64,000 nt of DNA from an uncultured Acidimicrobiia bacterium. GTDB lineage: Bacteria > Actinomycetota > Acidimicrobiia > Acidimicrobiales > AC-14. Positions 15,853 to 22,479 of the stretch are shown piece by piece. Under the pieces are notes generated by a model. It did no database searches, had not been told where the DNA came from, and saw only the letters and a list, made by a program, of their open reading frames with translations. The first letter of the stretch is position 1, and each line of letters begins with the position of its first letter. The translations under genes were made by a program, and so were the position numbers. Location: assembly GCA_963836205.1 (NCBI GenBank), contig CAWIIV010000008.1:160001-224000 (forward strand). The letters run 5' to 3'.

Positions 15853-18177
15853 CTACCGGCCGGTGGTGGTGGGCACCCGCCGGTCGGGGCTGTCGGCTGC
15901 CTCCCGGCCTTCGACGGCCACGTCGGGCAGCAGCTTGTCGAGCCAGCGGGGCAGCCACCAGTTCTTGTCTCCTAGCAGCTCCATGGTGGCGGGCACGAGG
16001 AGGAGGCGGACGATGGTGGCGTCGAGCAGCACCGCTCCCGCCAGGCCGATGCCGAAGAGCTTGATGACCCGGTCGTTCTCCAGCAGGAAGCTGCCGAAGA
16101 CGAAGACCATGATCAGGGCGGCGGCGGTGATCACCCGGGCGGTGGCGGCCAGGCCGTCGGCCACCGACTCCCGGCTGTCACCCGAGTGCTTCCACGCCTC
16201 CCGGATCCGGGACAGGAGGAACACCTCGTAGTCCATCGACAGGCCGAAGACGATGGCGAAGAGCATCATCGGCACGAACGGCTCGATGGGCGCCTTGTCG
16301 AGATTGAGGATCGACGCCCCCCAGCCCCACTGGAAGATGGCCACCACCACGCCGAAGGCGGCGCCCAGCGACAGCAGGTTCATGATCACCGCCTTGAGCG
16401 GCACCAGCACCGATCGGAAGACGGTCATCAGCAGGAGGAACGACAGCCCCAGCACGGCGGCGAAGAACAGGGGCATGCGGGCGGTCATGTAGTCGGAGAA
16501 GTCGACCAGGATGGCGACCGTGCCGGTGACGGAGACGTCGAGCCCGGTCCCCTCGACGGCCGGTGGCAGGACGCCGTCGCGCAGGGTCGAGACCAGCTCG
16601 GTGGTGGCCTCGTCCTGAGGTGAGGTCGACGGCACCACCCGCCACAGGGCGGCGGTGGGGTTGTCGGGGTCGTTGAGGACGGCCGGGCTGGCGAAGGCGA
16701 CACCGGGTGCCCCCGTCAAGGCGTCGGTGACTCGCTGCAGGGTCGCGTCCGAGGTGCCGGGCGGCACCTCGGAGACCACCATCATGGTGCCGTTGAAGCC
16801 GGGGCCGAAGCCCTCCGCCAGCAGGTCGTAGGCCTTGCGGGTGGTGGTCTCCTCGGCGTAGTTGCCCTCGTCGGAGAAGCCCAGCCGGAGCCCGAACACG
16901 GGCAGGGCGAGAAGGATGAGCACGGCCACCGCGATCAGCGCCGAGGGCCACGGGTGGTGCTGGATCAGCCGGCTCCAGCGGTAGGCGAGGGTCTCGTTCC
17001 GGGGCTTGGGAGCGGGCCGGGGCACCGGCTGGCGCAGCGGCCGGACGGCGAGGCTGGCCAGCATGACGATCGCGGCCAGCGGCAGGCAGACGGCGAACAG
17101 GGCGGGGATCTTGAGGCCCAGGCCCAGCAGGCCCACCGCCAGCAGGCTGGCCCCGATGAGGCCTCGCCAACGGGTGAGCTCGACCCGTCCCCCGGCGAAG
17201 CCGAGCAGGGCGGGCAGGAGGGTCAGAGCCGCCACCATGGTCATGAAGACGACGAGGGCGGCGCCGATGGCCAGGCCCGACACGAAGCTGATCTGCATCA
17301 CCAGCATGCCGAGCAGCGAGATGACCACGGTGGTGCCGGCGAAGGCGACCGACCGTCCGGCGGTGTCGATCGACTGGCGCACCGCGGGCCCGATGTCGTC
17401 GCCCGCATGGAGCTGCTCCCGGAACCGGGTGACGATGAACAGGGCGTAGTCGATGCCCACGCCGAGGCCGATCATCAGGCCCAGCTGGGTGGCGAAGTCG
17501 GGGATGGTGATGAAGTTGGAGAACAGGCCCACGGTGATGGTGCCGAAGCTGATCCCCGCCAGGGCGACGGCGATGGGCAGGCCCATGGCCAGGACCGACC
17601 CGAAGGCGAGCACGAGGATGACCATGGCGAAGGCCACGCCCAGCAGCTCGGACGAGGGAGGCTCGAACTCGCCGAAGATGGCCCCGCCGAGCTCGATCTG
17701 GAGGCCCGCCTGCTCGGGCATCACCTCGTTGATGTCCTTGGTGATGGCCTGGGCGGTCTCGAAGGTGACCTCGGGGTCGAGCTCGACCACGGCGTAGCCG
17801 ATGTCGCCCGGGTGCTCGGCGGTGTCGGAGATCTGGTTCGACCCGTCCTCCGAGTAGGGGCTCACCACCCGGGCCACGCCGTCGACCTCGGCCACCTGGG
17901 CGAGGAACGACTCCATGGTGGTCCGCACCTGGGGGTCTTCCACGCCCGCGTCGGACCGGAAGACGACGGTGCCGCTCTCACCCGTGCCCTGGCCGCCGAA
18001 GTGCTCCTCGAGGACCTCGAAGCCCTGGCGGCTCTCGACGTCGGGCAGGTTGAAGTCGGCCCGGTAGGCGGTGCCGAGGGAGCTGAGGATGCCGCCGGCC
18101 ACGAAGAGGCCGAGCACCCATCCGATTACGACGATGCGGCGGTGATCGTGGCACCAACCACCAAGGCGTCCGAACAC
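15853..18177 (-). CDS. MMPL/RND family transporter
   Basis: GLGVGIDYALFIVTRFRE, FGLSMDYEVFLLSRIRE, many TM segments. Confidence 0.93.
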   Translation of the reverse strand: MFGRLGGWCHDHRRIVVIGWVLGLFVAGGILSSLGTAYRADFNLPDVESRQGFEVLEEHFGGQGTGESGTVVFRSDAGVEDPQVRTTMESFLAQVAEVDGVARVVSPYSEDGSNQISDTAEHPGDIGYAVVELDPEVTFETAQAITKDINEVMPEQAGLQIELGGAIFGEFEPPSSELLGVAFAMVILVLAFGSVLAMGLPIAVALAGISFGTITVGLFSNFITIPDFATQLGLMIGLGVGIDYALFIVTRFREQLHAGDDIGPAVRQSIDTAGRSVAFAGTTVVISLLGMLVMQISFVSGLAIGAALVVFMTMVAALTLLPALLGFAGGRVELTRWRGLIGASLLAVGLLGLGLKIPALFAVCLPLAAIVMLASLAVRPLRQPVPRPAPKPRNETLAYRWSRLIQHHPWPSALIAVAVLILLALPVFGLRLGFSDEGNYAEETTTRKAYDLLAEGFGPGFNGTMMVVSEVPPGTSDATLQRVTDALTGAPGVAFASPAVLNDPDNPTAALWRVVPSTSPQDEATTELVSTLRDGVLPPAVEGTGLDVSVTGTVAILVDFSDYMTARMPLFFAAVLGLSFLLLMTVFRSVLVPLKAVIMNLLSLGAAFGVVVAIFQWGWGASILNLDKAPIEPFVPMMLFAIVFGLSMDYEVFLLSRIREAWKHSGDSRESVADGLAATARVITAAALIMVFVFGSFLLENDRVIKLFGIGLAGAVLLDATIVRLLLVPATMELLGDKNWWLPRWLDKLLPDVAVEGREAADSPDRRVPTTTGR

Positions 18178-18289
18178 GTGGCTTCCTCCTCGAGACGGGG
18201 GGCGTCGGCGCCCATGCTACGGAACGCAGGCGCGTTATGTGAACAGGATTAGGGAACGGCGGACCGGACGGGCCTGTCCAGGGAAAATG

Positions 18290-18363
18290 TGGGCGCTGAG
18301 GGACTCGAACCCCCGACCCCCGGCTTGTAAGGCCGGTGCTCTGACCAACTGAGCTAAGCGCCC
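18290..18363 (-). tRNA. tRNA-Val (anticodon TAC)
   Basis: Reverse complement GGGCGCTTAGCTCAGTTGGTCAGAGCACCGGCCT-TAC-AAGCCGGGGGTCGGGGGTTCGAGTCCCTCAGCGCCCA folds as a cloverleaf. Confidence 0.96.
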
Positions 18364-18394: not shown

Positions 18395-18910
18395 CTACTC
18401 GCTCCCGGTGGCCGGGCGGTTGGCCCGGGCCAGCTCCACGAGGGCAGTGGTGGCCTCCGGCAGCAGGATCGGCAGCGCGTTGGGAGCGAACCACCGCACC
18501 TCCACGATCTCCGGCGACGCCGGGGTCGGCGGTGGCGGATCGGATTCGTCGCCGGGCAGCCGGCCCCGGTAGACGACGTCGACCCGCCGGTGGCCGGAGT
18601 CGACCACCACCATGGGGGCGTCGTCGACCTCCACCTCCACGCCGAGCTCCTCCCGCACCTCCCGACGGACGGCGTCGGCCGGCTGCTCCCCCCGCTTCAA
18701 GAGGCCGCCGGGGAACCCCCAGGCTTCCTTGCGGCGGTAGGACTGGCGCAGCAGGAGCAGGGCGCCGTCGGCCCGCTCGATCACGCAGAGGGCGCCGACG
18801 TGGAACGACGGGGTCAGGGTGCGCACGACCAGGAGTCGACCCGCGAGAGGGAGCCGGCGGTAGACGCCCAGGAGCGCCGTCTGGACCCGCTGCCGGGCTG
18901 CGGGCAGCAC
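18395..18910 (-). CDS. NUDIX hydrolase
   Basis: Nudix box GGLLKRGEQPADAVRREVREELG. Confidence 0.88.
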   Translation of the reverse strand: MLPAARQRVQTALLGVYRRLPLAGRLLVVRTLTPSFHVGALCVIERADGALLLLRQSYRRKEAWGFPGGLLKRGEQPADAVRREVREELGVEVEVDDAPMVVVDSGHRRVDVVYRGRLPGDESDPPPPTPASPEIVEVRWFAPNALPILLPEATTALVELARANRPATGSE

Positions 18911-18915
18911 GAGGC

Positions 18916-19662
18916 TCAGCGGAGCCCGGCGCGGGCCTCGAGCGCCTCCGCCAGCAGCTTCTCGGTGGCGGCCGCCACGGGCGTGCGCCGTTCTGTCAGG
19001 CCCAGTGTGACCAGCTCCCGGCCCTCGGCGTCGGCCACCAGCCCCCCCGCCTCCCGGCACACGAGGACACCCCCCAGGTAGTCCCAGGGGGCGCAGGAGT
19101 GGTCGCTGCAGTCGATGTAGGCGTCGAGCAGGCCGGCGCCGACTGCGCAGATGTCGAGGGCGGCCGCCCCGAGGGCCCGGAACTGGCGCCAGCCGAGGTA
19201 CGCCGCGGGCCAGCCGTTGAGCCCGACGACGGCGTCGCCCATGGTGGTGCAGCCGGTGCTGTGGAGCGGACGGCCGTTGCACGTGGCTCCCGAGCCCCGC
19301 AGCGCCTCGAACCGGTCGCCGGTGGCCTGGTTGACGACCACCGCCGCCCGCACACCGGCGGTGTCGACCGCGGCCAGGCTGGTGGCGTACCAGGGCAGCC
19401 TGCGGGACGCGTTGGTCGATCCGTCGACCGGGTCGAGGGCCACCATGACCGGCCGGTCGGGGTGATGCAGGCCGGTCTCCTCGGAGAGCACGCCCAGGCC
19501 CGCCCCCACCAGGATCGCCACCGCCACCTCGTCCGCCGCCAGGTCGCTGAAGTACTGGCCGGGGCGCGTGCCGGCCGGGCCCCAGTCGTCGAGGGCCTCG
19601 AGGGCGGCGTGGACCGCGGTCGCCGCCTCGTTGAGGACGGCGATGAGGCGGTCGTCGGTCAT
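18916..19662 (-). CDS. Inositol monophosphatase family protein
   Basis: SEE, LDPVDGSTN, RALGAAALD, WDY motifs. Confidence 0.9.
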   Translation of the reverse strand: MTDDRLIAVLNEAATAVHAALEALDDWGPAGTRPGQYFSDLAADEVAVAILVGAGLGVLSEETGLHHPDRPVMVALDPVDGSTNASRRLPWYATSLAAVDTAGVRAAVVVNQATGDRFEALRGSGATCNGRPLHSTGCTTMGDAVVGLNGWPAAYLGWRQFRALGAAALDICAVGAGLLDAYIDCSDHSCAPWDYLGGVLVCREAGGLVADAEGRELVTLGLTERRTPVAAATEKLLAEALEARAGLR

Positions 19663-19750: not shown

Positions 19751-20308
19751 TTGGCTGCCATCGACGTGGCCGGATACGTAGCGGAGCTCAAGGACCACGC
19801 CGTCGACCACGGCTTCCATGTCCACGACGAGCGCCACTTCGTGGAGACGTACTCCCTGCGCCAGGTGTGGGAGGTCGACCTCCACCCGGAGGAGGGCTGC
19901 GGTGGCCCCCTCGACCTCCACCTTGCGCTGGAAGTGGAGCCGCGGGTGCTCCTCGCCTTCGAGGACGTGGTGTCGAACCTGCCCGACGACGAGGACCCGG
20001 CCGACGACTTCCAGTTCCCCCTCATCTTCACGTGGGCCCTGCCGCCGCTGCCCAAGGGCCCCGACCTGCTCCTGTTGGCCACCGAGTTGGCCGGCGTGGG
20101 CGGGCCCGACCTGCCCCTCGAGGTGTCGGCCATCGACTCGTTCGCCTCGGTCACCGACGCCCCCGAGCGCAGCCTCACCATCGTCGCCCGCCAGCAGGTG
20201 TCGCTGGCCAAGGTCCTGGCCGGCGAGGAGCTGCTGTGCGACATGCTCGACCGCTGCCTGGCCGTCAGCCGCTTCCTGCTCGACCAGGCGCCGGCGTGGG
20301 GCGTCTGA
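19751..20308 (+). CDS. Conserved-looking hypothetical protein (acidic, ~185 aa)
   Basis: TTG start after strong RBS GGAGGAGG; typical high-GC3 codon usage. Confidence 0.75.
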   Translation: MAAIDVAGYVAELKDHAVDHGFHVHDERHFVETYSLRQVWEVDLHPEEGCGGPLDLHLALEVEPRVLLAFEDVVSNLPDDEDPADDFQFPLIFTWALPPLPKGPDLLLLATELAGVGGPDLPLEVSAIDSFASVTDAPERSLTIVARQQVSLAKVLAGEELLCDMLDRCLAVSRFLLDQAPAWGV

Positions 20309-20318
20309 CGCAAAACCC

Positions 20319-20347
20319 TTGACAGAAGGGGAGCCCGGGCTTATATT
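20319..20347 (+). promoter_or_regulatory. Near-consensus sigma-70/SigA promoter TTGACA-N17-TATATT
   Basis: TTGACA at 20319-20324, TATATT at 20342-20347. Confidence 0.8.
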
Positions 20348-20355
20348 TGTCTTCC

Positions 20356-20437
20356 GGAGTCCCAAGGGGGCACCCGAAGCGGAAGGACCCTCGGGTCCAG
20401 AAGCGGAGGAAACTTCCTTGGGGCTCCTCTTTTTTTT
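20356..20437 (+). ncRNA. Candidate structured small RNA (~82 nt) ending in a U8 tract
   Basis: 5'/3' ends pair over 15 bp (GGAGTCCCAAGGGGG / CTTCCTTGGGGCTCC), 14x14 internal loop, apical hairpin GGACC-CTCG-GGTCC, then T8. Confidence 0.6.
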
Positions 20438-20456
20438 GCCCTATTGTCGGGTTCTG

Positions 20457-20539
20457 GCCCGGATGGCGGAACGGTAGACGCGATGGTCTCAAACACCATT
20501 GTCCGAAAGGGCGTGCGGGTTCGAGTCCCGCTCCGGGCA
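20457..20539 (+). tRNA. tRNA-Leu (anticodon CAA)
   Basis: GCCCGGA acceptor, ATGGT-CTCAAAC-ACCAT anticodon arm, long variable arm, GGTTCGAGTCC T-arm. Confidence 0.96.
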
Positions 20540-20665
20540 CGGCCGTTCGGCGGCATACACGCTGGCAGCGTCCTCTAGGGCCTCTGCGTGAGATGCATTG
20601 AGGTGTCCTTCGTGGTCACGAGTTGGTCACAGATCGCCGGACGGGGGTTCGGCAGCGTCCTGCGG

Positions 20666-20713
20666 GTCGACGGCAATGTGTGAGTCGACGGCAATGTGAG
20701 TCGACGGCAATGT
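20666..20713. repeat. Three direct repeats of GTCGACGGCAATGT
   Basis: Copies at 20666, 20684 and 20700. Confidence 0.85.
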
Positions 20714-22134: not shown

Positions 22135-22479
22135 AGTCCCGTCGAGCGCCCACAGGCGTCGTCGCTGGTCACACCGTGGTCACGGAATGCCCGCCACTCG
22201 ACAACACCAGACACCATGCCCGTTGTGGCGCCAACCCGAAAGGGCTGTCCAGAGCGGTCGTCTCGACCCCTGGCATCATCCGATGAACAAGGCCTGCGGG
22301 AGTTCGAGTCCCGCTCCGGGCACGGCCGTCACCCACGACGCTCAGGGTGCACGGAACGAACCGTGCGCCGAGATGGCCGTGATCCGGCCCGAGATCGCCG
22401 CCGACACGACGATTCGAGCGATCTGAAGGGCGACCGACGTTACGTGCGCCGGAATCGTCGTGGGCGGTGGGGGGCGGCG

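Follow-up and report, generated by a model that had tools for sequence, protein, structure and literature searches.

A small RNA gene of about 80 bases, previously undescribed and, so far as sequence can tell, real and conserved, is found in one family of uncultured Acidimicrobiales. The reading that we favour, with moderate confidence, is that of a gene in its own right, whose product, a stable structured RNA of about 80 nt from an undescribed family, probably binds a protein and is often co-transcribed with tRNA-Leu. The gene lies in the window (the whole 64,000-nt stretch that was analyzed, G000:C8:160001-224000). A sequence-only reading of this window had proposed a new small RNA here, and the proposal holds up: the element comes with a promoter of its own and a conserved structure, and nothing in Rfam matches it. 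Moreover, the promoter is conserved together with the RNA, and the conserved structure shows compensatory changes, as is asked of an independent small RNA gene.

The promoter and the hairpin

The promoter, TTGACA-N17-TATATT, occupies positions 20319-20347 of the forward strand and matches the consensus at 11 of 12 positions, with the -35 hexamer TTGACA at 20319-20324, a spacer of 17 nt, and the -10 hexamer TATATT at 20342-20347. It had been picked out as the best promoter match in the window, and it is the only 11/12 site both there and in the whole assembly. Scans of the window report one other promoter-like site, scoring 9/12, and a TTGAC-anchored scan of the 4.05-Mb assembly reports nine sites with at least 10/12, this one included. 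The -35 hexamer starts 11 nt past the stop codon of a gene for a 185-aa protein. Directly 5′ of the hexamer, the forward strand reads as an A-tract (20312..20315) that is possibly an UP-like element, and A-rich stretches like it also precede the -35 hexamer in the flanks of many homologues. The gap between the promoter and the 72-nt hairpin is 8 nt, and the start of the RNA is predicted at ~20354-20356, at the foot of the stem.

The same layout is seen in every homologue. We collected 48 instances from 47 genomes, and in all 48 a promoter of the form TTGACN-N16-18-TAnnnT ends 5-8 nt 5′ of the first paired base, so that the RNA would start at the foot of the helix. The conservation of the promoter is independent of the homology search because the covariance model used here (R1) begins only 5 nt before the stem, and the promoter lies outside of it. 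As a separate observation, the window's genome carries four near-identical promoters of the form TTGACA-N17/18-TA(G/A)CAT, each with the same ~70 nt after it, at C6:64744(-), C6:635524(+), C23:59126(+) and C20:132762(+) of G000, which may constitute a repeated mobile or regulatory unit.

Could the element encode a protein? The only open reading frames over the hairpin either extend through the tRNA or read the upstream gene in another frame, in agreement with the earlier statement that there is no credible ORF, and the lengths of the homologues (81-100 nt) differ by amounts that are not multiples of three.

The hairpin spans 20356-20427, and its ends pair over 15 bp (20356-20370 with 20413-20427). 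This end pairing, the apical GGACC-CUCG-GGUCC hairpin and the run of eight Us are all present where they had first been placed. Reading the forward strand from its 5′ end, the 5′ arm of the outer helix, GGAGUCCCAAGGGGG (20356..20370), is assigned from the fold and from covariation. The 5′ interior strand (20371..20384, assigned from the fold) follows with a CAC loop, a CC that pairs with GG, a GAA engaged in purine pairs, GC, and GGAA. After it comes the apical hairpin (20385..20398), of variable sequence among homologues with its pairing kept. The 3′ interior strand (20399..20412) reads AGAA, GC, GGA, GG and AAA, and the 3′ arm of the outer helix is CUUCCUUGGGGCUCC (20413..20427), both assigned from the fold and from covariation. 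The U8 tract (20430..20437), read from the sequence, gives the element an end like that of an intrinsic terminator, that is, a stem, here ending at 20427, that is GC-rich and directly followed by Us. A simple terminator scanner did not list the element, owing to its loop limit of 8 nt. Of the 48 instances, 28 have at least 4 Ts in a row after the stem, and the predicted end of the RNA is not uniform across homologues because 12 instances, with runs of at most 2, have no U tract.

The minimum free energy of the RNA strand is -44.4 kcal/mol, and that structure makes up 0.905 of the ensemble (z = -2.27); 5 out of 200 shuffles fold as well. The opposite strand folds less well (-36.7, z = -0.93). 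The fold statistic by itself makes a modest case, and the case beyond chance rests on conservation and covariation. Unpaired segments of the folded RNA are only 3-4 nt long, and the predicted structure is best described as one irregular rod.

The two interior strands had been described as a symmetric open bubble of 14x14 nt, a picture that does not stand, given that folding and covariation split the strands into short helices and purine-purine pairs. The CC at 20374-20375 pairs with the GG at 20408-20409, and this helix is kept in 91.7% of the alignment cells, with six G-C/C-G swaps. Beside it, the window presents the purine-purine oppositions G.A, A.G and A.G, and then a G-C pair. In some genera both strands read ACCGAGGA, resulting in a symmetric CC-GA-GG duplex with tandem G.A pairs. 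We also weighed by eye whether the loops could be K-turn, loop E or UAA/GAN motifs; they misfit the K-turn layout because the CC/GG helix separates the 3-nt strands from the G.A pairs.

Both interior strands carry the word GAAGCGGA in the window (20376-20383 and 20400-20407, forward strand), as had been noticed, and the window has 7 copies of it when 2.0 are expected. The duplication is not general, though: it is found in only 5 of the 48 instances, all in the window's genus. Any 8-nt word common to the two strands is present in 8 instances, and in 34 the strands have at most 4 nt in common. The duplicated purine-rich word had led to the suggestion of a decoy that presents GGA motifs to CsrA, as CsrB/RsmZ-type sponges do. 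GGA is indeed frequent, in the 3′ interior strand of 44 instances and in the 5′ strand of 18. It sits in internal, mostly paired or purine-paired segments, however, while in CsrB and RsmZ the GGA is conserved and exposed in hairpin loops. Moreover, CsrA itself (PF02599) was not found in this assembly, which is 88.6% complete, using a model that does match the E. coli, B. subtilis and T. maritima controls. Together with the rarity of the duplication, this leaves a CsrA/Rsm-type sponge hardly credible.

Conservation and covariation

A BLAST search with 20310-20545 against 61 related genomes finds the whole stretch at 86-92% identity in all 7 genomes of the same genus, and at 73-78% identity in members of three further genera; the hairpin part alone is also matched at sites unlinked to the tRNA. 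The hairpin RNA is single-copy in its own genome. From 20 instances aligned with MAFFT (alignment A1), on which the structure was named, we built the covariance model R1, whose E-values are rough since its calibration was short. In the window's family, f1, R1 matches 45 of 58 genomes, representing 13 of 18 genera and 15 of the 22 high-quality genomes, with one copy per genome except for one genome with two contigs. A sample of the order gives matches in 5 of 151 genomes, of which three are f1 genomes and the other two belong to a single genus of family f32, and a second sample of the order, 41 genomes searched at looser thresholds, agrees with this rarity outside f1 and f32. At the instance loci the forward strand scores 37-91 bits, and the reverse strand at most 33.

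The search can be widened much further by scanning for the exact pattern. In 185,579 species genomes we found 52 such loci, and 46 of them score 41-91 bits with R1: 45 labelled as Acidimicrobiales, Acidimicrobiia or actinobacterial metagenome-assembled genomes, and one as Burkholderiales. The remaining six are in other phyla and score 17-25 bits, about chance level. All instances come from uncultured organisms and none from a cultured strain. Six of the 48 (G023, G009, G008, G035, G015, G061) belong to unpublished genomes, two of which (G023 and G009) contribute to A1. When the six are left out, 42 instances remain, with the tRNA close on the same strand in 28, on the opposite strand in 3, far in 1 and absent in 10, and the conclusions are the same.

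Is the RNA needed by every member of the family? Judging by gene content, it is dispensable, because 13 of the 58 f1 genomes, including 7 of the 22 high-quality ones, have no match to R1, and in one of them the protein gene is directly followed by the tRNA. In that f1 member (L016, G024), the 185-aa gene, 34 nt and the tRNA-Leu follow each other with no hairpin in between, an arrangement that, read from gene order, shows the element lost or never inserted. As to expression, four sets of contigs from RNA libraries of mixed communities share 5-9% of sampled words with the region. They reach into portions of the upstream gene and the tRNA but leave 20295-20464 uncovered, and as assembled contigs they are uninformative either way on expression.

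Covariation in relatives had been proposed as a check, and it is positive on both alignments that we used. In A1, 91.8% of cells are paired, where controls with the structure slid along the alignment reach 35-60%, and both partners have changed in 10 pairs, where shuffles give 3.9 (none of the 500 reaches 10). A second alignment (A4) includes all 48 sequences; it was fitted to the structure of the model and thus favours that structure, a weakness that the MAFFT-based A1 does not have. In A4, pairing is kept in 92.3% of cells, where shuffles give 85.1% and slid controls 37-60%, and 11 of 23 pairs have double compensatory changes against 5.6 in shuffles (again 0 of 500 reach it). The apical stem (helix 4) has compensatory changes in 3 of its 4 modelled pairs among the 48 sequences, and it is capped mostly by CUCG, UUCG or GAAA loops.

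The outer helix behaves differently. Of its 15 pairs, 6 are invariant among the 48 sequences and 5 have compensatory changes. Its wobble pairs are themselves maintained, G19.U105 in all 48, G18.U106 in 40 and U10.G114 in 26, and the pair 14-110 is G.U in 21 and A.C in 14. Pairing alone would leave the sequence of the helix much more freedom than these alignments show.

A nearly invariant helix is what one would expect if one of its arms had to match a target. Thus, the RNA could be a base-pairing or processed regulator, where RNase III or another nuclease opens the helix and an arm, for instance CUUCCUUGGGGCUCC, which resembles an anti-Shine-Dalgarno sequence, pairs with an mRNA. A 15-bp helix with internal loops is also like the known hairpins processed by RNase III. 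The folded RNA, however, has no single-stranded seed, and one structure dominates its ensemble, both of which lead us to give this regulator little credence. (Target matches of 12-15 nt are expected by chance in a GC-rich genome of 4 Mb, and would not be informative.) The alternative that we favour is that a protein recognizes the helix. That the RNA acts by being bound by a protein is the most likely mode of action, because there is no unpaired stretch longer than 4 nt and the helix is constrained beyond pairing.

The neighbouring protein gene and the tRNA

The gene order around the element comes from codon-position GC and family scans. On the reverse strand are an MMPL transporter (15853-18177), a tRNA-Val (18289-18363), a NUDIX protein (~18395-18850) and an inositol-monophosphatase-like protein (18919-19662). 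On the forward strand, the gene for a conserved hypothetical protein of 185 aa (19751-20308) has a TTG start after a GGAGGAGG ribosome-binding site. The 185-aa gene is adjacent upstream in 38 of the 48 instances, at 85-100% identity, with its stop codon 43-93 nt before the stem, and the hairpin would also end transcripts of this gene.

Such a position raises the concern that there is no RNA function at all, and that the hairpin is just the terminator of the upstream gene sitting next to the promoter of the tRNA. Several observations speak against that: sequence conservation across 13 genera is not usual for a terminator; the promoter is upstream of the hairpin in 48 out of 48 instances, and not between the hairpin and the tRNA; the interior loops and the CC/GG helix are conserved and covary; and the promoter-hairpin unit moves together to other contexts. 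A bare terminator is accordingly a very improbable explanation.

The 185-aa protein is a single-copy, near-core protein of the order, present in 136 of 151 genomes at 42-99% identity (a count that includes the unpublished G098, G121 and G198), and it has 3,891 relatives in the database, all unnamed. It has no Pfam or NCBIfam match. Its invariant residues H23, H25, H29, H45 and C50 suggest a metal site. The structural model of the protein (pLDDT 92) has a fold like that of YbjN and secretion chaperones (Z 8-9.7), the best structural match being 2plg_B (Z 9.7, rmsd 3.4 over 131 residues); a Foldseek search with the model reports nothing at E ≤ 0.001. The modelled fold gives no hint of RNA binding. 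We rejected this protein as an obligate partner of the RNA, as the protein is found in 136 and the RNA in 5 of the 151 genomes of the order. In f32, the gene and the hairpin RNA are on different contigs. The linkage of the two is one of local gene order and not of partnership, because the DNA after the 185-aa gene in other families (26 loci read) has no such hairpin.

On the other side of the hairpin, tRNA-Leu(CAA) is at 20457..20540 on the forward strand, 19 nt after the T8, and is probably co-transcribed with the hairpin by read-through. It is the only full tRNA-Leu(CAA)-like match in the assembly. In 30 of the 48 instances the stem is followed by the tRNA at 11-111 nt in the same orientation, and in 9 of these it is within 16 nt, which leaves no room for a separate promoter. 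Of the 12 instances with a T run of at most 2, 9 have the tRNA next. In many genomes, then, the hairpin and the tRNA are very probably on a common transcript.

Three other sequence features of this region can be mentioned here. A putative promoter for the tRNA (TTGGGG-N18-TATTGT, 20418-20447) is seen in the genus alone, and it carries no weight in our reading. An exact copy of the final 28 nt of the tRNA-Leu region (20519-20546) is present 1,783 nt downstream, at 22302-22329, and the pair resembles an attachment repeat that a small integrated remnant would have. Just past the tRNA, 20661-20713 consists of three tandem copies of a 16-19-nt unit with a GTCGACGGCAATGT core. We attribute to chance the likeness of the hairpin to two parts of the tRNA-Leu, the T arm (common GAGUCCC) and the variable arm.

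With such a neighbour, it is natural to ask whether the hairpin is purely a cis-acting 5′ leader of tRNA-Leu(CAA), one that attenuates transcription or guides processing and in doing so sets the level of the only UUG-reading tRNA, the RNA having no function of its own. An attenuating leader had been raised as an alternative from the beginning, and the part of that proposal that stands is the frequent proximity of the tRNA, including its presence next to most of the instances that lack a U tract. The part that does not stand is its generality, since a leader would always have the tRNA after it on the same strand. In 4 instances the tRNA is on the opposite strand, in 1 it is on the same strand ~1 kb away, and in 13 it is absent from the available flank (3 of these have flanks of less than 600 nt). 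These 18 instances still keep the promoter, the helix and the loops, and therefore the hairpin is not only a leader. Moreover, the f1 genome with the tRNA directly after the upstream gene indicates that the tRNA does not need the hairpin. In f32, the element is found elsewhere (L063 1597-1911, in G088, and likewise L064, in G160): there the promoter and the hairpin have no U tract, and the stem ends ~12 nt before an ORF of 104 aa. We regard a pure leader as unlikely. In three of the instances where the tRNA is not adjacent (L050, L053 and L062, of G062, G030 and G071), a GAACAnnnGTTCG palindrome is found just after the hairpin, resembling an actinobacterial LexA box.

From sequence features, conservation, covariation, the conserved promoter and the gene contexts, we infer transcription, termination, read-through, processing and protein binding for an independent protein-binding RNA as follows. 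A housekeeping-type promoter, near consensus, would start transcription at the foot of the stem, and because it starts there, the RNA would have almost no single-stranded 5′ end. The rod would consist of the 15-bp helix with its G.U wobbles, a 3x3 A-rich loop, the 2-bp CC/GG helix, tandem G.A/A.G pairs, and a variable stem with a stable tetraloop. In the window's genome, most transcription would stop at the U8; transcripts that read through would carry tRNA-Leu(CAA) after the 19-nt spacer, and RNase P would then separate both RNAs. In other genomes, the RNA would be freed either by termination or by tRNA processing. A protein would read the wobble-rich helix and the purine-rich loops, and the action would not be by base-pairing with an mRNA.

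The scope of this RNA is narrow, one family of metagenome-assembled genomes with no cultured host. Acidimicrobiia are, on the other hand, abundant in soils and waters and mostly uncultured, and what we have is a clear and testable new RNA family, with the best promoter in its genome, a compact seedless fold, and a physical link to the only UUG-reading tRNA. If the RNA is bound by a protein, this would be a new RNA-protein pair for the phylum. Hfq, ProQ and CsrA are not known from most lineages of the phylum (CsrA alone was checked in this assembly).

Larger relatives and known RNAs

When R1 is run across the class, 10 of 151 genomes match, including 5 of the 7 genomes of family f91, which belongs to another order. 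In that order R1 matches 11 of 40 genomes (4/4 of f91, 3/4 of f102, 2/3 of f157 and 2/4 of f93). What R1 matches there is a hairpin of 64 nt; its helix sequence, tandem G.U included, is that of the small RNA, and it often has a CGCGUY tail like the one in several f1 genera. Here the helix closes a chain of 5-7 hairpins, forming unannotated RNAs of ~150-330 nt rich in UUCG and GCAA loops (L108-L112, L114-L116, L201-L211). They are present in one to three units per genome, which are in tandem, 488-891 nt apart, when there are two or three. A promoter-like site is 160-330 nt upstream where one was found (6 of 11 loci checked), and the f91 RNAs have two CGCGAAAA boxes upstream. The large RNAs have no Rfam match, and a BLAST search with the body of one of them against the window's genome returns only short chance matches.

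What the large RNAs have in common with the small one is the terminal helix, GGARCCCCGAGRGGG ... CUYYCUCGGGGUUYC, in which the tandem G.U keeps its position. They differ in that the promoter of the small RNA abuts the helix, and in that its helix carries the extended interior. As for still more distant matches, in two low-GC genomes of the phylum (L129 in G441, and L130 in G428), a TTGACT-N17-TAnnnT promoter lies directly against a hairpin that has a GAGCCCCAAG or AGUCCCAAG stem and ends in a U tract. These matches score 28.3 bits (E ~2e-4) and have no Rfam match; they could be distant relatives or look-alikes.

The common 3′ module points to a set of larger unannotated RNAs. As we would define it from these sequences, the proposed module is a helix of 15-17 bp in which the tandem G.U is fixed and after which a CGCGUY tail often comes; in the other order it closes RNAs of ~150-330 nt, often in tandem arrays. 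A bolder proposal, which we put forward tentatively and with more doubt than conviction, is that the 80-nt RNA is the smallest form in a broader, so far undescribed family of Acidimicrobiia RNAs with this 3′ module; that f1 lost the body, and the promoter became joined directly to the module; that the module is a docking site for one conserved protein; and that the large members could be the missing 6S/Ms1-type regulators of the class.

How does the small RNA compare with those already known? The search of Rfam that had been suggested at the outset, run with Rfam 15, has no family that matches the element, whether at gathering score in a scan of the window or at E ≤ 10 in one of 20200-20650. 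A search of the full-text literature found no paper on small RNAs of Acidimicrobiia. A passage of a paper on the raiA motif (PMC10861870) places that motif in Acidimicrobiia; no locus that we scanned has a raiA match.

One question concerns RNA polymerase. Like 6S and Ms1 RNAs, the element is strongly promoted, rod-like and, in our proposal, protein-binding, and it had been put forward as a miniature open-bubble mimic of them. A minimal RNA of this kind, binding RNA polymerase, would suit the very strong promoter, the absence of an RF00013 (6S RNA) match, and the terminal helix that is common to RNAs of another order of a size fitting such a role. Yet a 6S RNA is a rod of ~180 nt with a large open central bubble, and the element is less than half the length of 6S and Ms1 RNAs, with its interior closed by the covarying CC/GG helix and by tandem G.A pairs. 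RF00013 has no match in the window or in the genome, which is weak evidence as the model matches only 5 of 14 control genomes (none of them Corynebacterium) and misses the other 9. The main text of a survey of Ms1 (PMC9130861) does not mention Acidimicrobiia. We consider the mimic very unlikely.

With CsrB/RsmZ sponges, the element has in common repeated purine-rich words that contain GGA; it differs from them in that its motifs are neither in loops nor conserved as repeats, and in that no gene for CsrA was found in the assembly. A different kind of precedent is given by regulatory RNAs cut out of tRNA precursors, of which the 3′ external transcribed spacer in the glyW-cysT-leuZ operon of E. 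coli is an example. The similarity here is a transcript in common with a tRNA-Leu, from which the RNA would be freed by tRNA processing. The element differs from that spacer in its position, on the 5′ side of the tRNA, in having a conserved fold of its own that leaves no single-stranded site for pairing, and in persisting where no tRNA accompanies it.

Finally, there is the bacterial small SRP (4.5S) RNA, RF00169, which is marked by its domain IV loops and a GNRA-type apex. The element has no RF00169 match, either at gathering score or at E ≤ 10, and the SRP RNA of this genome is on another contig (70.5 bits with RF00169) with a sequence unlike that of the element. The likeness is one of architecture: both are single-copy hairpins of ~80-100 nt whose internal loops, close to the apex, are conserved, and SRP RNA binds a protein, as we propose for the element. 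The difference is in where the conservation lies, given that in the element it is the apical loop that varies and the basal helix that is conserved.
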